Source: a virus
Taxonomy: Duplodnaviria; Heunggongvirae; Uroviricota; Caudoviricetes
Strand: one strand, 5' to 3'
DNA length: 4,288 nucleotides
Virus record (IMG/VR): IMGVR_UViG_2671180547_000009
Program-made: the position numbers and the translations under genes
The notes under the pieces: model-generated
Told to the model about the DNA's origin: nothing
The model's database searches: none
The model's input: only the letters and a program-made list of their open reading frames with translations
In this document: one piece after another, positions 1 to 4,288 of the stretch
Position numbering within the stretch: the first letter of the stretch is position 1
How the letters are laid out: the number at the start of each line of letters is the position of its first letter

Positions 1-157
1 GCTTTGAACTCTTTAGAGTAACGTTGGGTTTTTCTGCTCATTATTAGCTCCTTCTGATGCCATTCTATTTCAGGAAGGAGTGTCCGTTAAACTCAGGCTA
101 CCTCAGGTTATTCGCTTCTGGGCATGGGCGGATCAACAAATGATAGACGGTAATGCA

Positions 158-178
158 GATTGTAACGCTCGCGGCGTT
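158..178. repeat. Palindrome TGTAACGC-N5-GCGTTACA (iteron-like)
   Basis: Left arm 158-165 is the exact reverse complement of right arm 171-178; it shares the GTAACGC core with the palindrome at 371-389. Confidence 0.5.
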
Positions 179-370
179 ACAAAAAGTGCAATAGATCGCA
201 TCACTTTTATGTCTGGTTTTGCTGATGCGTTAATTCAGGTTGGATGGCTGGTCGAAAATGACGGAGGGCTTTCTCTACCTAACTTTGAACGTCATAACGG
301 AAAAAGCTCTAAAAAAAACGGGCGGTTACAAACGAGCGAGTAACAAAAATACGCGAACTGAAACGAAAAG

Positions 371-389
371 GTAACGCTGCCAGCGTTAC
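371..389. repeat. Perfect 19-bp palindrome GTAACGCTG-c-CAGCGTTAC (iteron-like)
   Basis: 9-bp arms are exact reverse complements around a single central C. Further GTAACG/CGTTAC copies lie at 18-23 and 407-412, in an A-rich stretch (about 343-410). Confidence 0.5.
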
Positions 390-788
390 ACAAACGGATC
401 AAAAAGCGTTACCAGAGGAAGAGGAAGAGGAAGATCTAAATACTGATCTCCCCCTCGCCAAAAACGAGCGTCTAAAAAATTCGAGCCGGAGGCTATTGAG
501 CTGCCCGATTGGTTGCCGGAAACACTCTGGCATGAGTGGGTCCGGTTCAGACAGGCATTGCGAAAACCGATTCGAACGGAGCAGGGCGCTAACGGGGCGA
601 TACGGGAACTGGAAAAATTCCGTCAGCAGGGTTTTACACCTGAGCAGGTGATTCGACACAGCATCGCCAATGAATACCAGGGCCTGTTCGCGCCGAAAGG
701 TGTTCGGCCTGAGACGTTGCTCCGACAGGTTAACACCGTCTCGTTGCCGGACAGTGCGATCCCGCCAGGCTTCAGGGGGTAACGGACC

Positions 789-1229
789 ATGAAAAATATT
801 GCGACAGGCGGCGTTCTGGAACGCATCCGCCGACTGACCCCGCCACATGTAACCGCCCCATTCAGAACGGTAGCGGAGTGGCGCGAGTGGCAACTTGCTG
901 AAGGCCAGAAACGTAGCGAGGAGATCAACCGCCTGAATCGCCAGTTGCGGGTGGAAAAAATTCTGAATCGCTCAGGCATCCAGCCGTTGCACCGTAAATG
1001 CTCGTTTGCGAATTACCAGGTGCAGAACGACGGCCAGCGATACGCGTTAAGCCAGGCGAAATCCATCGCCGATGAACTGATGACCGGGTGTACAAATTTT
1101 GCGTTCAGCGGAAAACCTGGTACCGGGAAGAATCACTTAGCGGCAGCTATCGGGAATCGCCTGCTGAAAGACGGTCAGACAGTGATTGTGGTTACCGTGG
1201 CTGATGTTATGAGCGCCCTGCACGCCAGC
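789..1229 (+). CDS. DnaC/lambda-P-like AAA+ helicase loader, 3' part lost in N-run (partial)
   Basis: ATG 789 lies 6 nt after the preceding stop (coupled). Walker A GKPGTGKNHLAAAIG and an N-terminal region resembling DnaC-type loaders. Only 147 codons are defined before the N-run, so Walker B and sensor motifs are not visible. Confidence 0.8.
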
Positions 1230-1270
1230 NNNNNNNNNNNNNNNNNNNNNNNNNNNNNNNNNNNNNNNNN
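1230..1270. other. Run of 41 N (assembly gap or masked sequence)
   Basis: Literal n characters; the true length of the missing sequence is unknown. Confidence 0.95.
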
Positions 1271-1286: not shown

Positions 1287-1709
1287 ATGGCGAAACCTTT
1301 TACTCCCGAACAGCGGGAAGAACTGAAGACGCGAATTGTGGAACTCGTGCATCAGGACGGTCGGGTCACGATTCGGCAGTTGTCAGATGAAACAGGTATC
1401 AGTCGTGCGTCTGTCGGTCGCTTATGCATAGAACTGGTCGCAAGTGGTGATGTATATAATTCTGGCTACGGCTTATTCCCGTCTGAACAGGCTCGCAAGG
1501 ACTGGCAAAGCGCCCGCAAAAAACTCTCGAGAGTAAAGGTGAGGAAACCGGTTGTTGTTGATCCGGACCTTATCTGGTCATTACCTGACGGAGAAATACG
1601 CCGCTACGACAGGCGCCTGAATATAATCTGTCGCGAGTGCCGGAAGAGCGAAGCTATGCAGCGTGTACTGGCTTTCTATCAGGGTAATTTTCAGGAGGCG
1701 ATACTGTGA
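1287..1709 (+). CDS. Helix-turn-helix protein, possibly Ren-like (140 aa)
   Basis: ATG 1287 preceded by AGGAGG (1277-1282, 4-nt spacer). HTH-like segment TIRQLSDETGISRASVGRL near the N-terminus. Its position right after the helicase-loader gene and the C-terminal CRECRKSEAMQRVLAFY match my recollection of lambda Ren (unverified). In-frame continuity with the DnaC-like ORF in the supplied track is an artefact of the N-run. Confidence 0.55.
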   Translation: MAKPFTPEQREELKTRIVELVHQDGRVTIRQLSDETGISRASVGRLCIELVASGDVYNSGYGLFPSEQARKDWQSARKKLSRVKVRKPVVVDPDLIWSLPDGEIRRYDRRLNIICRECRKSEAMQRVLAFYQGNFQEAIL

Positions 1710-2123
1710 ATGAAATTAGCTATCAGGCTTCAATTACCGCTGGCATTCGCATCAAAGGAGAGGAGCATGGAAATAAAACCAGAAGATGAGTTAAGCAATA
1801 TCGTTTTATTTCCGGTAAAAGAGGATGACCCTCGTAATCAGGTTAATTTTCTTTATGAGCCATCGGAAAGACCATATTGCCATCACGCCTCTGTACGGGT
1901 TGACGAAAAAGAGCGTCAGGTCCGCTGTAAAATCTGCGGTGCGGTTGTGGAGCCGTTTGACTGGATGCTCTCTGTGGCAAAAAGAGAAACCAGACTGGCA
2001 GATGATGTAAGGCTATTGCGCCAGGAGGAACAGGAAAGGCGGAGAAATATAGAAAAGCTGATACAGATTGAGCGTAACGCGAAAGCGCGGATACGCAGGG
2101 CGACAAAATCCAGAACTGAATAA
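1710..2123 (+). CDS. Hypothetical small protein with Cys/His cluster (PYCHH...CKIC) and basic coiled-coil C-terminus
   Basis: ATG 1710 directly abuts the upstream TGA (TGAATG), suggesting coupling. An alternative start is ATG 1767, preceded by AAAGGAGAGGAG. C-terminal ...RLLRQEEQERRRNIEKLIQIERNAKARIRRATK is charged and helical. No family recognised. Confidence 0.55.
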   Translation: MKLAIRLQLPLAFASKERSMEIKPEDELSNIVLFPVKEDDPRNQVNFLYEPSERPYCHHASVRVDEKERQVRCKICGAVVEPFDWMLSVAKRETRLADDVRLLRQEEQERRRNIEKLIQIERNAKARIRRATKSRTE

Positions 2124-2270
2124 TTAAATTTAGCACTGTTAAAAATTTAATCCTTAACCGGAGGGATTTCTGCACCCTCAAATCATCAGGAGACCACCCG
2201 AAAGGGCGGGGAGCAGTCACACATCTGTTTCCGATAGCCCCGTTCTAATGCTACACTCTTTGATATTTTT

Positions 2271-2957
2271 ATGACCCCAATAAACATATTTATGACAGTT
2301 GCTGATTTCAAACGGCCCAAATTGGAGCTCCCAAACGGGGCAAACAAACTACTACTGCACTCTTGCTGTGCTCCATGTTCCGGTGAGGTGATGGAGGCGC
2401 TTCAGGCCTCGGGAATCGACTACACCATCTTTTTCTACAACCCGAACATTCATCCTCAGAAAGAGTATTTAATTCGTAAGGATGAGAATATTCGCTTTGC
2501 TGAACAACACGGCGTGCCGTTTATTGATGCTGATTACGACACAGACAACTGGTTTGAACGAGCCAAAGGAATGGAATGGGAGCCCGAACGAGGGATCCGT
2601 TGCACCATGTGTTTTGACATGCGTTTTGAGCGGACAGCGCTGTACGCCGCTGAAAATGGTTTCAGTGTGATCAGCAGTTCACTGGGCATTTCACGCTGGA
2701 AAAATATGCAGCAGGTTAACGACTGTGGGCGGCGAGCCGTCGCGCATTATCCGGGCATGGTGTACTGGGATTATAACTGGCGCAAGCAGGGCGGCTCGTC
2801 CCGTATGATTGAAATCAGCAAGCGCGAAAAATTCTATCAGCAGGAATATTGTGGCTGTGTGTATTCTCTGCGCGATACCAATCTACACCGCAAATCTCAG
2901 GGACGCCCTCTTATCAAAATTGGTCAACTCCACTACGGTAAAGAAGAGAAGGAGTGA
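2271..2957 (+). CDS. queH: QueH-like (DUF208) epoxyqueuosine reductase
   Basis: 228-aa ORF with HSCCAPCS near the N-terminus plus further conserved-looking Cys pairs (CTMC, CGC), matching the Cys-rich metal-binding signature I recall for DUF208/QueH. Alternative start ATG 2292 (MTVADF...). Neither start has an obvious Shine-Dalgarno sequence. Confidence 0.7.
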
Positions 2958-2978
2958 TTTTATGGGGCACCTTTCTGA

Positions 2979-3008
2979 TTGATTTCATATTGGCGAGGTA
3001 AGTAGAAT
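2979..3008 (+). promoter_or_regulatory. Sigma70-like promoter candidate TTGATT-N18-TAGAAT
   Basis: -35 TTGATT at 2979-2984 and -10 TAGAAT at 3003-3008; it uses the same two hexamers as the promoter candidate at 3414-3441. It would drive transcription into the N-run. Confidence 0.3.
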
Positions 3009-3026
3009 GACTGCGGGTGCTTGAGG

Positions 3027-3063
3027 CTATCTGCTTCAGGCATGAACACCAAAAGGCAGATAG
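3027..3063. repeat. 8-bp perfect inverted repeat CTATCTGC-N21-GCAGATAG
   Basis: 3027-3034 is the reverse complement of 3056-3063. It lies just downstream of the promoter candidate, so it could be an RNA hairpin in a 5' leader or a protein-binding site. Confidence 0.4.
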
Positions 3064-3116
3064 AGAAAAGCCCCAGTTAACATTACGCGTCCGGCAAGAC
3101 GCTTAACATTAATCTG

Positions 3117-3326
3117 NNNNNNNNNNNNNNNNNNNNNNNNNNNNNNNNNNNNNNNNNNNNNNNNNNNNNNNNNNNNNNNNNNNNNNNNNNNNNNNNNNNN
3201 NNNNNNNNNNNNNNNNNNNNNNNNNNNNNNNNNNNNNNNNNNNNNNNNNNNNNNNNNNNNNNNNNNNNNNNNNNNNNNNNNNNNNNNNNNNNNNNNNNNN
3301 NNNNNNNNNNNNNNNNNNNNNNNNNN
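3117..3326. other. Run of 210 N (assembly gap or masked sequence)
   Basis: Literal n characters; the content cannot be assessed. Confidence 0.95.
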
Positions 3327-3342
3327 CATCCTCAACGCACCC

Positions 3343-3392
3343 GCACTTAACCCGCCCATCGCTGTGATCTCTCAGCGTTTCGGCGGGTTTTT
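3343..3392 (+). terminator. Rho-independent terminator
   Basis: CCCGCC (3343-3348) pairs with GGCGGG (3374-3379), with an inner stem CGCTG (3352-3356) / CAGCG (3365-3369), followed immediately by TTTTTTGTTGTTT. The minus-strand version lacks a downstream T-run, so it is unidirectional. Confidence 0.6.
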
Positions 3393-3413
3393 TGTTGTTT
3401 ATTTCCGGTGAAT

Positions 3414-3441
3414 TTGATTCGCGCACCTTCGCAGATAGAAT
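3414..3441 (+). promoter_or_regulatory. Sigma70-like promoter candidate TTGATT-N16-TAGAAT
   Basis: -35 TTGATT at 3414-3419 and -10 TAGAAT at 3436-3441, about 80 nt upstream of ATG 3523 and just after the terminator. Confidence 0.4.
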
Positions 3442-3522
3442 CGACTCACTTAAGTAGCGCGCAGGGAGAAGAGGGATGGACCCCGAACAGGGGAGAGCTA
3501 TTTATCTGGAAGGATTCTGAAG

Positions 3523-3810
3523 ATGAAAATCGAAGAATTGCGTGAAATTTTTAGTGAAAATGGCCTCTATGCTGTGCGCGTTGAGAATGGAGCGATTGTC
3601 AGCCATTGCCGCATTAGATGTTTGCAATCTCAACAAAGGAAGAGCGGTGCTGTGTTATTTTATTTTTGTAATGGACTTCTGACGGACGGTTTTATTTTGC
3701 GTGAGGACGAATTTGTCACATCATTACGGGTTTTGAAAGAGATTGGTTTTAAGGCTGGTTTTCTGCTTTTGCTGAAGAATAAACTCATCTACAATCTTGA
3801 GCAGGATTGA
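3523..3810 (+). CDS. Hypothetical protein, 95 aa, AT-rich orphan gene
   Basis: ATG 3523 with GGAAGGA 8 nt upstream; own promoter candidate and upstream terminator; by eye, markedly lower G+C than the replication genes. No family recognised. Confidence 0.55.
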   Translation: MKIEELREIFSENGLYAVRVENGAIVSHCRIRCLQSQQRKSGAVLFYFCNGLLTDGFILREDEFVTSLRVLKEIGFKAGFLLLLKNKLIYNLEQD

Positions 3811-3848: not shown

Positions 3849-4202
3849 ATGGCACATATACAACTGGTCAAACAAACCTCTTCCGGATTACTTCTCCCGG
3901 CGACGCCGGAGAGTTGCGATTTTCTGCATCAAATCAAAATAGGTGAGTGGATACACGCAGACTTTAAGCGTGTGTGTAACTACGCATTCCACAAGCGTTT
4001 TTTCAAACTCCTGCAACTGGGTTTCGATTACTGGACTCCGGTCGGTGGGGCGATCACGCCTCGCGAACGAAAACTGGTGTCCGGTTTCGTTGATTACCTG
4101 TGTGAATCAGTAGGCCGGGAACATACGCCAGCTCTGAGCGAAGCCGCAGAGCAATTGAGGTGTACTGGCAATAGCGGACACTACCATTTGTTCTTTTTTT
4201 AA
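3849..4202 (+). CDS. Hypothetical prophage protein, 3' end probably altered by IS insertion
   Basis: The track ORF starts at TTG 3807, overlapping the previous stop; a more likely start is ATG 3849, preceded by GGAG (3838-3841). The stop TAA 4200-4202 overlaps the stop of the minus-strand transposase tail. No family confidently recognised. Confidence 0.5.
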   Translation: MAHIQLVKQTSSGLLLPATPESCDFLHQIKIGEWIHADFKRVCNYAFHKRFFKLLQLGFDYWTPVGGAITPRERKLVSGFVDYLCESVGREHTPALSEAAEQLRCTGNSGHYHLFFF

Positions 4203-4288
4203 GCAGCCATCTGATGATATTTTTCCCTGAAGGCTGCCGGGGAGATATTCCCCAGACGAGAGTGACGACGCTGACGATTGTAGAAAAT
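4199..4288 (-). CDS. IS3-family-type DDE transposase, C-terminal 29 codons (partial, continues beyond window)
   Basis: The reverse complement of 4202-4288 translates to IFYNRQRRHSRLGNISPAAFREKYHQMAA, then stop at 4199-4201. The YN..R.HS.LG..SP..F pattern is the characteristic C-terminal motif of rve-type (IS3-like) transposases. Confidence 0.6.
   Translation of the reverse strand: MFYNRQRRHSRLGNISPAAFREKYHQMAA

Follow-up and report, generated by a model that had tools for sequence, protein, structure and literature searches.

The window, as the whole 4,288-nt stretch of Caudoviricetes DNA analysed is called here, harbors a genuine, intact and full-length queH gene, located in a lambdoid prophage just 3' of the replication module and 5' of a hok/sok module. 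This gene is probably a captured housekeeping queH that now serves as a self-expressed accessory gene ("moron") and renders the conversion of epoxyqueuosine (oQ) to queuosine (Q) independent of cobalamin. The features of the window are as follows.

1..105, minus strand: end of IS600 (IS3 family), 100% identical to 3666-3770 of locus L017, in or beside an annotated IS600 transposase.
106..782, plus strand: remnant of an O-like/YdaU replication initiator, its 5' end cut by IS600, with two frameshifts.
789..1270, plus strand: DnaC-like helicase loader (ydaV type), matching NCBIfam PRK12377 and DnaC, partly hidden by an N-run at 1230-1270.
1287..1709, plus strand: DUF977/Ren-like gene, the last of the replication module (PF06163, E 1e-33; phrog_142, Ren-like).
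1767..2123, plus strand: small zinc-ribbon hypothetical gene (RefSeq CDS at 13638-13994 of the reference prophage, L001; phrog_1621; weak Zn_Ribbon_TF match).
2221..2248, plus strand: left part of the segment common to most other E. coli queH prophages, with a weak -35-like TTCCGA inside.
2249..2257, plus strand: TGCTACACT, conserved extended -10-like element and putative promoter, 43 nt 5' of the ATG at 2292.
2271..2291, plus strand: seven extra in-frame codons (MTPINIF), probably 5' leader and not coding.
2292..2957, plus strand: queH CDS, epoxyqueuosine reductase QueH, 221 aa plus stop (PF02677; PDB 7lc5; RefSeq start).
2979..3400, plus strand: hok/sok type I toxin-antitoxin module (Rfam sok RF01794 at 3015-3115, 58.7 bits).
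3849..4155, plus strand: DUF1367/NinB-like gene, truncated by IS600 (PF07105 profile positions 1-102 of 198; phrog_319, NinB/Orf).
4156..4288, minus strand: second IS600 end, oriented like the copy at 1-105, matching 2487-2639 of L017.

A search of the ORF product against Pfam returned the QueH family PF02677 at 220.6 bits (cutoff 23.5; E 1.9e-65), covering profile positions 1-174 of 175. The Thermotoga maritima QueH chains in the PDB (7lc5) were matched by phmmer at E 5e-22, with 30-31% identity and the same length class. The preliminary description, made from the letters of the sequence, had recognized a DUF208/QueH-type ORF with a CCAPC motif and additional Cys pairs, and had proposed a profile search and an alignment to a structurally characterized QueH as checks; both have now been run and agree with it. 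In the 228-aa numbering of the longer frame, the CCAPC motif comprises C32, C33, and C36, and the further pairs are C111/C114 and C194/C196. The six residues C32, C33, C111, C114, C194, and C196 were Cys in all 57 diverse family representatives aligned, and they correspond to C9, C10, C87, C90, C169, and C171 of T. maritima QueH. Position 36 was Cys in 54 of the 57 and Asp in the remaining three, as in T. maritima, so that the prophage protein carries the majority state of the family whereas the T. maritima enzyme has Asp13 (CCAPD). N59, R110, Q191, G195, and S199 were likewise invariant among the representatives, and all are kept here. The mutants deposited in the PDB, C9S (9d86) and D13N (9dco), lie at the positions aligning with C32 and C36. 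The six Cys of QueH, in three pairs (CC, C-x2-C, and C-x-C), are what we take to be the ligands of a [4Fe-4S] cluster and an adjacent iron; these probable roles are drawn from the alignment and the deposited mutants.

The AlphaFold2 model of the protein (pLDDT 77.4, pTM 0.79) showed the same relationship. Its top five Foldseek matches were all T. maritima QueH structures (7lc7, 7lc5, 9d86, 9dco, and 9deu; target TM 0.82-0.84, rmsd 2.5-3.4 A), whereas the next folds, LarE among others, reached a target TM of at most 0.45. The modelled fold is the adenine-nucleotide-alpha-hydrolase-like Rossmann core seen in 7lc5. The gene product thus has both the six Cys and the fold in common with the known T. 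maritima enzyme (DUF208, PF02677, COG1636; 7lc5, 7lc7, 9deu), from which its setting differs: the present copy is of a prophage- and plasmid-borne kind, not at a core chromosomal locus, and in a host that already has QueG. No model in the NCBIfam scan matched the protein, although RefSeq names it QueH.

In the ORF list the frame runs on the plus strand from 2271 to 2957 (228 aa), and the start at 2271 adopted earlier did not withstand comparison among copies. Where the window has the ATG at 2271, the ST70 prophage, the Klebsiella and Salmonella plasmids, and Erwinia have ATT, ACT, or GCC, whereas the ATG at 2292 was unchanged in all 10 copies compared, from prophages, a phage, plasmids, and chromosomes, and is also the start used by RefSeq; the true start is therefore almost certainly 2292, giving 221 aa. 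The ATG at 2271 also lies only about 14 nt 3' of the proposed -10 element. No Shine-Dalgarno sequence was found 5' of either ATG. The allele is 100% identical to that of E. coli FDAARGOS_944.

The surroundings of queH accord with the earlier placement among replication and nin-like genes, as the O-like, DnaC-like, and DUF977/Ren-like genes lie on its 5' side and hok/sok and the DUF1367/NinB-like gene on its 3' side. It is also the sole queuosine-pathway gene of the element, as had been stated, since neither the window nor the 29-kb reference prophage has a second one annotated. The comparison of gene neighborhoods that had been suggested revealed the DUF977 gene as the left neighbor of queH in six of six prophages or phages inspected, with varying downstream neighbors. 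The zinc-ribbon gene, whose family phrog_1621 has no assigned function, occurs between DUF977 and queH only in the present prophage type. Relative to the reference prophage, the alignment of the O-like gene showed two additional A at ~311-318 and a 10-nt deletion at ~448. The 41 N at 1230-1270 stand for 304 nt of the reference, and the 210 N at 3117-3326 for 277 nt; the RF01794 match stops at the latter run, which hides the hokD ORF annotated at the matching place in the reference, and a sokW is annotated in phage 933W. Homology to the reference stops at 4155, beyond which matching E. coli records carry the annotation IS3-like element IS600 family transposase. Despite the frameshifts in the O-like gene and the IS600 cuts at either end of the fragment, queH is intact.

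Mobile copies of queH proved to be common. The gene was present in 995 of 5,426 complete E. coli genomes (18%), with at least 80% of the CDS covered in 985 of the 995 copies; among 40 sampled copies, 39 covered at least 98% of the CDS and one was cut at 64%. queG was detected in all 5,426 genomes and thus in all 995 with queH. In addition, queH was found in the isolated, viable temperate phage HannyBb, in an E. albertii prophage whose locus belongs to a related prophage, and on 202 plasmid records. The E. coli and E. albertii queH prophages are Rac/Qin-like lambdoid elements, and the plasmids are conjugative, belong to Klebsiella, E. coli, and Salmonella, and represent at least three lineages; at the plasmid loci inspected, queH was solitary and IS-flanked. 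Other matches in a tblastn search of a phage collection, namely unannotated faecal contigs of 4-50 kb and phage-labelled records of 280-380 kb, were not counted. Pairwise dN/dS among the mobile alleles was 0.02-0.06, while dS reached 0.45 at most between alleles of E. coli prophages and exceeded 1 against Klebsiella plasmid alleles, demonstrating that mobile queH is under very strong purifying selection. The nearest non-Escherichia proteins, at 79-86% identity, are the chromosomal QueH of Erwinia, Providencia, Photorhabdus, and others, and in other Enterobacterales the chromosomal gene lies among core genes (purL-queH-glrK-glnB, tmcA...purC).

The DNA upstream of queH may carry a promoter of its own. 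Homology in most E. coli genomes begins at query position 92, corresponding to 2221 in the window, and each of the ten mobile copies examined had TGCTACACT at -43/-44, the two Erwinia chromosomal copies having it at -40; in Providencia and Photorhabdus, TATACT and TATAAT were found at a similar distance 5' of queH. For comparison, TGCTACA has a background frequency of 6e-5 per nt. No plus-strand promoter 5' of queH emerged from the consensus scan, which missed TGCTACACT because the -35 is weak, and so it is conservation that points to TGCTACACT as the putative promoter element belonging to queH itself. Inspection by eye of the conserved segment 5' of queH for an IscR or Fur site gave no testable match, and the idea was dropped. 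The sequence 3' of the queH stop codon differs between cassette types, and the consensus scan detected no terminator-like site in 1700-3600.

Morons are single accessory genes inserted between the modules of a phage and often driven by a promoter of their own, and the classic ones are mostly virulence or exclusion factors. The queH cassette resembles the morons and auxiliary metabolic genes of lambdoid phages in being a single gene that varies among related prophages at a fixed inter-module slot, in its conserved, putatively promoter-like element, and in its plausible benefit to the lysogen. Unlike the classic morons, it encodes a tRNA-modification enzyme and has no terminator of its own detected in 1700-3600.

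It is proposed that queH and ~70 nt of DNA 5' of it, bearing its putative native promoter, were captured from an enterobacterial chromosome, and that the resulting single-gene cassette now circulates on prophages, in a variable slot after the replication module, and on conjugative plasmids. Expressed in the lysogen, its product, predicted to be a catalytically competent, cobalamin-independent, iron-sulfur tRNA epoxyqueuosine(34) reductase, would act on host tRNA-Asp, -Asn, -His, and -Tyr already bearing epoxyqueuosine from host QueA, and would convert it to queuosine via a [4Fe-4S] cluster and an adjacent iron. The lysogen or plasmid host may in this way gain queuosine completion without a supply of vitamin B12. 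As QueG needs cobalamin and E. coli lacks de novo cobalamin synthesis, the cassette would make queuosine completion B12-independent. We know of no established phenotypic difference between epoxyqueuosine-tRNA and queuosine-tRNA, and for this reason a presumed benefit is read here only from purifying selection.

Several reports bear on this proposal. The complete Q pathway of E. coli is established (PMC5372724), and PMC4646009 describes its last step as cobalamin dependent, citing Frey et al. 1988. PMC5372724, citing Zallot et al. 2017, presents QueH as a non-orthologous replacement of QueG. Both enzymes are present in S. aureus and some streptococci. QueG and QueH share their reaction and their tRNA substrates (PMC5372724, PMC4646009), and here the two occur in the same E. 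coli cells. They have no sequence or fold relationship, and QueG is cobalamin-dependent whereas QueH is not; moreover, queG is core and chromosomal, whereas queH is accessory and mobile in the present case.

A lytic role for the gene appears improbable. queH would then be transcribed only in the delayed-early right operon after induction, and the additional queuosine would improve the decoding of phage late mRNAs or phage-encoded tRNAs. It has the orientation of cro, the replication genes, and the nin/Q genes, and since its direction is that of the early-right operon, transcription from pR could simply continue into it; the scan showed no terminator separating queH from the genes upstream, and the isolated, viable HannyBb retains it. 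Against this, none of the prophage tRNA genes, which are Met/Ile(CAU), Arg, Thr, and Gly, has a GUN anticodon, and no tRNA occurs in the region of HannyBb examined. A link between queH and phage tRNA genes was rejected because no GUN-anticodon tRNA is present, and NAU-codon enrichment in phage genes was likewise rejected, the NAU share of NAY codons being 0.50-0.54 in prophage genes versus 0.55 in a sample of host genes. The same cassette with its upstream element is also found on conjugative plasmids, which have no lytic cycle, and queH is intact in the present IS-bracketed, frameshifted prophage remnant, which is unable to replicate as a phage. Furthermore, a lytic cycle of 20-60 minutes is presumably short for remodelling a pool of stable tRNA. 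Between the functions that the preliminary description had envisaged, B12-independent queuosine completion is thus favored, whereas tuning of NAU decoding by the phage found no support.

It is very unlikely that the enzyme has been repurposed, whether for a 7-deazaguanine base in phage DNA, for a small molecule, or for a conflict role such as the susceptibility of Q-tRNA to anticodon nucleases. The slot of queH often bears defence or conflict genes (NgoMIV-type R-M, Kiwa KwaB-like, hok/sok), and phages and defence systems make use of 7-deazaguanine chemistry (PMC6884629; PMC13639016). Phage DNA-modification clusters of the phage 9g type (DpdA with FolE/QueD/QueE/QueC; PMC6884629) also borrow queuosine/archaeosine genes. 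These clusters put preQ0-derived bases into DNA and never include QueA, QueG, or QueH, and QueH was not found in DNA-modifying phages by Hutinet et al. (PMC6884629). In contrast, the present prophage has only the last, tRNA-specific step and no transglycosylase: the reference prophage region, with 47 annotated features, contains no DpdA/TGT-family member, nor did Pfam detect one among the window ORFs, and none of the preQ0 synthesis genes folE, queD, queE, and queC, nor queF, is annotated in the prophage. Membership of QueH in a defence system was rejected, as no PADLOC-DB family matched at E <= 0.01. Because the protein keeps 79-86% identity to housekeeping QueH and every family-invariant residue, there is no sign of changed specificity; with the low dN/dS as well, the earlier suggestion of repurposing for 7-deazaguanine chemistry is not supported. 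To our knowledge, epoxyqueuosine has not been reported to occur in DNA.

Equally slight is the likelihood that queH is a neutral passenger, acquired by illegitimate recombination and hitch-hiking in a lambdoid recombination hotspot with no benefit to phage or host: its redundancy with queG in every genome, its presence in only 18% of genomes, and the unrelated cargo that the slot holds elsewhere (NgoMIV-type R-M, Kiwa KwaB-like, DUF1971, and hok/sok genes) would fit such a passenger, but dN/dS values of 0.02-0.06 at substantial synonymous divergence are incompatible with neutrality, the copies are mostly whole, and prophages and at least three plasmid lineages retain the same upstream element.

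The biochemistry is not new, because the enzyme family, the reaction, and the name are known and pipelines already name the gene, RefSeq doing so in ~1,000 complete E. coli genomes; what is mildly novel is the context. No paper within the literature searched discusses phage or plasmid QueH or the spread of queH on mobile elements, in agreement with the earlier remark that its role in a lambdoid prophage is uncharacterized. Hutinet et al. (2019; PMC6884629) reported no QueA, QueG, or QueH homologs in the viruses they analysed, and in PHROGs the queH family, built from N-terminally truncated gene calls, is listed as "unknown function"; the present finding corrects both that entry and the statement of the 2019 survey on QueH in viruses.

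It appears under-appreciated that a last-step queuosine enzyme is common mobile cargo in Enterobacteriaceae (18% of E. coli genomes, HannyBb, and ~200 plasmids), and that mobile queH is, in the E. coli genomes, always redundant with the host's B12-dependent QueG and yet strongly purified. On the strength of this common carriage, redundancy, and purifying selection, it can be argued that the oQ-to-Q step has fitness value under cobalamin limitation. We know of no laboratory work showing such a value under limiting cobalamin, and queH-positive and queH-negative isolates offer a simple natural experiment. A bolder and rather doubtful extension is that mobile queH has been selected since queuosine, unlike epoxyqueuosine, matters in natural habitats where cobalamin is in short supply or cells have switched off its uptake. 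BtuB, the importer of B12, doubles as a receptor for phages and E-type colicins. If this extension were true, enterobacteria would keep fully modified tRNA while repressing or losing BtuB, queH would aid survival of the competition for B12 in the gut, and its distribution would be the first natural evidence of a fitness effect of the oQ-to-Q step, representing a new class of lysogenic conversion that acts on the tRNA epitranscriptome.

The window contains an uninterrupted plus-strand open reading frame (ORF) at 2271-2957 (228 aa), which the preliminary description had assigned to the DUF208/QueH type, with a CCAPC motif and additional Cys pairs; both are present in the sequence. The profile search proposed there, run against Pfam-A, returned a single family, PF02677 (QueH), at 220.6 bits (curated cutoff 23.5; E 1.9e-65) over profile positions 1-174 of 175, and a PDB sequence search returned only Thermotoga maritima QueH chains (7lc5 and mutants; E ~5e-22), with ORF residues 27-203 aligned to chain residues 4-178. 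Given the full-profile Pfam match, the PDB match, and the CCAPC motif with its further Cys pairs, the ORF, its coordinates and its QueH family are genuine and well past chance. The open frame stands as described, and a gene start at 2292 is preferred over 2271. In an alignment of ten copies and the DNA upstream of each (the window and four other prophages, three plasmids, one Erwinia chromosome, and the isolated temperate Escherichia phage HannyBb), ATG 2292 was invariant and ATG 2271 was replaced by ATT, ACT or GCC in four. Because of this invariance, the RefSeq CDS start at the position equivalent to 2292, and the 11-residue N-terminus from ATG 2292 common to the Erwinia chromosomal protein, the gene is most likely 2292..2957, encoding 221 aa.

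QueH reportedly holds a [4Fe-4S] cluster and, next to it, a coordinated iron. Searching 1.84 billion cluster representatives in full with HMMER yielded 4,754 relatives at E <= 0.001, and 57 whole-domain representatives among the best 150 of these (one per 50%-identity cluster) were aligned with the window protein and T. maritima QueH. This alignment to a structurally characterised QueH, also suggested earlier as a check, revealed that all six conserved Cys were kept: C32, C33, C111, C114, C194, and C196 (228-aa numbering, from ATG 2271), equivalent to T. maritima C9, C10, C87, C90, C169, and C171, were Cys in 57/57 representatives, and N59, R110, Q191, G195, and S199 were likewise invariant. 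Position 36 (T. maritima Asp13) was Cys in 54 of the 57 and Asp in the other 3, so CCAPC is the family's normal state rather than a deviation. T. maritima QueH mutants C9S (9d86) and D13N (9dco) have been deposited in the PDB, indicating that crystallographers treated both positions as functionally important. Moreover, a Foldseek search of the PDB with an AlphaFold2 model of the window QueH (26 sequences; mean pLDDT 77, pTM 0.79) placed five T. maritima QueH entries on top (target TM 0.82-0.84; rmsd 2.5-3.4 A over 170-181 columns), followed by other PP-loop/alpha-hydrolase folds (LarE, argininosuccinate synthetase, TtuA) at target TM <= 0.45. As every sequence and structure test run came out positive, the window protein is a member of the QueH family.

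The window was 99.8-99.9% identical to a lambdoid prophage integrated beside ybhA/modC in E. coli FDAARGOS_944. The left part of that prophage comprises an integrase, recombination genes, a repressor, cro, a ydaT-like gene, an O-like initiator, a DnaC-like loader, DUF977 (Ren-like), and a small zinc-ribbon gene, and is followed by queH, hokD/sok, a small gene, DUF1367 (NinB-like), DUF1364, DUF1133, four tRNA genes, and lysis and head genes. This order agrees with the earlier placement of queH among phage replication and nin-like genes. No further queuosine-pathway gene and no DpdA/TGT-like gene was annotated in the 29 kb of this prophage, in line with the absence of other queuosine genes noted previously. 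The features that bear on the state of the window and on the prophage tRNAs are as follows.

Window 1-105: IS600 (IS3-family) end, same orientation as the right copy.
Window 106-782: O-like/YdaU replication initiator gene, 5' end removed by IS600, with two frameshifts relative to the FDAARGOS_944 prophage.
Window 2979-3400: hok/sok type I toxin-antitoxin module, directly downstream of queH.
Window ~4156-4288: IS600 (IS3-family) end, same orientation as the left copy.
FDAARGOS_944 prophage region (L001) 17417-17727: four tRNA genes downstream of antiterminator-like genes; Met(CAU), Arg(UCU), Thr(UGU), and Gly(UCC) by ARAGORN.

The frameshifts in the O-like gene are a gain of two A within the A-run at ~311-318 and the loss of 10 nt at ~448, and the NinB-like gene is interrupted by the right-hand IS600. 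The window is a degraded, defective prophage copy, yet its queH is intact, with an allele 100% identical to that of FDAARGOS_944. Both window ends are IS600 in the same orientation, so that the 4-kb prophage piece with queH sits between two direct copies in a composite-transposon-like arrangement; the left IS600/prophage junction was absent from all complete E. coli genomes and species-representative genomes compared. Two N-runs, one of 41 N at 1230-1270 replacing 304 nt of near-identical reference within the DnaC-like gene and one of 210 N at 3117-3326 replacing 277 nt of reference with the hokD toxin ORF, make the ORFs called across them artefacts. In the hok/sok segment, Rfam sok was detected at 3015-3115 (58.7 bits, ended by the N mask) and a promoter-like TTGATT-18-TAGAAT at 2979-3008; taken by itself, this segment has matches in over 4,300 E. 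coli genomes and in numerous Stx phages (sokW). The queH/hok segment is flanked by two conserved phage genes whose function is not known, the small zinc-ribbon gene (phrog_1621, 1767-2123) and a gene for a 95-aa protein (phrog_340, 3523-3810), and neither protein matched a defence model. The first prophage tRNA is called Ile by RefSeq, and none of the four has a GUN anticodon, so they are not queuosine substrates.

In 6/6 prophages or phages inspected (ybhA-integrated, Rac-like beside trkG, two Qin-like with dicB and cspB/F, O157:H7, and HannyBb), queH came after the DUF977/Ren-like gene at the end of the replication module, with a methyltransferase fragment in between in two and a small hypothetical gene in two others. 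The 3' neighbour was hok/sok or one of the following.

O157:H7 prophage locus (L008) 6851-8861: NgoMIV-family restriction enzyme and cytosine methyltransferase, a restriction-modification pair (Z1767).
FDAARGOS_1277 prophage locus (L009) 6875-8514: Kiwa KwaB-like gene.
ST70 prophage locus (L007) 7282-7620: DUF1971 gene.

The proposed comparison of neighbourhoods across related prophages thus gave a constant left neighbour and a variable right side. This is the kind of variable slot in which lambdoid phages typically carry cargo, and the position right after queH behaves as a hotspot for defence and cargo genes.

The window is homologous to most other E. coli queH prophages from position 2221 onward. 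Within this common leader, 43 nt before ATG 2292, lies TGCTACACT (2249-2257), which fits the extended -10 promoter form (TGn + TAnAnT) and occurs in all ten mobile copies; one plasmid has the variant TGCTAAAAT and one prophage TGCTACACA. Both chromosomal copies from Erwinia also have the element, at -40, in upstream DNA that is otherwise not alignable, and Providencia and Photorhabdus have TATACT and TATAAT at the same distance from the start. A consensus scan did not report the element as a promoter because the -35 is weak. From its conservation, we infer a good candidate for a promoter travelling with queH; its predicted leader of ~27 nt to ATG 2292 argues against 2271 as the start. No terminator was found after queH by consensus scan. 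As a genetic element, the cassette (queH with ~70 nt of upstream DNA) resembles a lambdoid moron; of the features that define one, its own promoter is a candidate and its own terminator is missing.

Among 5,426 complete E. coli genomes, the queH CDS was found in 995 (at least 80% of the CDS in 985), almost always as one chromosomal copy annotated "epoxyqueuosine reductase QueH", and K-12 queG in 5,426/5,426, so every queH carrier has QueG as well. A related prophage with queH occurs in the E. albertii type strain, and HannyBb carries queH at 96.5% amino-acid identity as a "hypothetical protein" (PP925841 33011-33697); other phage-collection matches, being unannotated faecal contigs or very large records, were left out of the phage count. 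In addition, 202 plasmid records contained queH; most of them are conjugative IncF plasmids from Klebsiella and E. coli (81-86% nucleotide identity), and one is a Salmonella plasmid (93%). On the three plasmids inspected (L004, L005, and L006; queH at ~7000-7670 in each), it was solitary among IS elements (IS3/IS481 transposases) and unrelated cargo, which differed among them (TonB fragments, fec iron-dicitrate genes, or dGTPase and NACHT genes). The PHROGs entry, phrog_3217 ("unknown function"), has a profile starting only at residue 34, past CCAPC, which points to gene calls cut short at the N-terminus among its members; many cluster representatives from the HMMER scan likewise start at residue 34. 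RefSeq already gives the gene its correct name, QueH, and phage-oriented resources label it "unknown function" or "hypothetical protein". A previous survey found no QueH in the viruses analysed (Hutinet et al. 2019, PMC6884629), and our literature search found no paper mentioning QueH on phages or plasmids, which agrees with the earlier view that its role in a lambdoid prophage is uncharacterised.

The nearest non-Escherichia proteins were QueH of Scandinavium, Kluyvera, and Enterobacter (89-92% identity), followed by those of Erwinia, Providencia, Proteus, Photorhabdus, Gibbsiella, Serratia, and others (79-86%). Three chromosomal loci were inspected, all with core genes around queH and nothing phage-like close by.

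Erwinia: purL-queH-glrK-...-glnB-hmp-glyA.
Providencia: queH near tmcA and purC.
Photorhabdus: queH beside benE.

Identity was still 76-80% to QueH of Sphingomonas, Stenotrophomonas, and Pseudomonas, and the clade is slow-evolving, so that the donor can be named no closer than an enterobacterial chromosome. Some species-representative genomes with 78-82% QueH matches (L045, L091, and others) bear labels that are implausible for this enterobacterial/proteobacterial clade, such as Bacillus subtilis SK7B5, Candidatus Avacidaminococcus, and Pseudomonas lundensis I31, the last with a Serratia-like allele; contamination or mis-binning is the probable cause. Nei-Gojobori analysis of twelve alleles gave dN/dS of 0.02-0.06 among prophage, phage, and plasmid copies. 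The corresponding dS was 0.09-0.45 between E. coli prophage copies, and comparison with the Salmonella plasmid gave 0.44-0.53 and with Klebsiella plasmids >1, indicating that the protein has been strongly constrained for its whole period on mobile elements.

E. coli lacks de novo cobalamin synthesis and has to import the cofactor, with which the medium supplementation in PMC11841063 is consistent. QueG is the established catalyst of the last step of queuosine (Q) synthesis in E. coli, the conversion of epoxyqueuosine (oQ) to Q, a step equally established as cobalamin-dependent (Payne et al. 2015, PMC4646009, citing Frey et al. 1988). QueH, an unrelated protein for the same reaction, is described as a non-orthologous replacement of QueG where PMC5372724 cites Zallot et al. 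2017. Genomes with both enzymes have already been documented for S. aureus (PMC13443448) as well as S. pyogenes and S. suis (PMC12632869), with differential cofactor availability as the proposed reason. The simplest and most likely reading of all results is that the cassette would add a second, cobalamin-independent oQ reductase beside QueG, acting on host tRNA-Asp, -Asn, -His, and -Tyr.

The results favour an advantage for the cell that carries the cassette over a part in phage development. It is possible that queH is a lytic-cycle helper, since it points the same way as the early-right operon and no terminator separates it from that operon; however, the occurrence of the same cassette on conjugative plasmids, the conserved promoter-like element of its own, its persistence in a dead prophage remnant, and the lack of any link to phage tRNAs or phage codon usage all favour the cell, the last also speaking against the phage decoding role suggested earlier. 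The dN/dS values do not fit easily with a neutral passenger. Repurposing for DNA 7-deazaguanine chemistry, one form of the repurposing suggested earlier, finds no partner genes, as every one required is missing, and DNA-modifying phages are without QueA, QueG, and QueH (PMC6884629). For a role in conflict, such as altered sensitivity of Q-tRNAs to anticodon nucleases, the neighbourhood is the one pointer, and PADLOC defence models gave no match to QueH. Under the preferred reading of a second oQ reductase serving the host, strong selection on a redundant, mobile, B12-independent enzyme implies that converting oQ to Q has value in nature.
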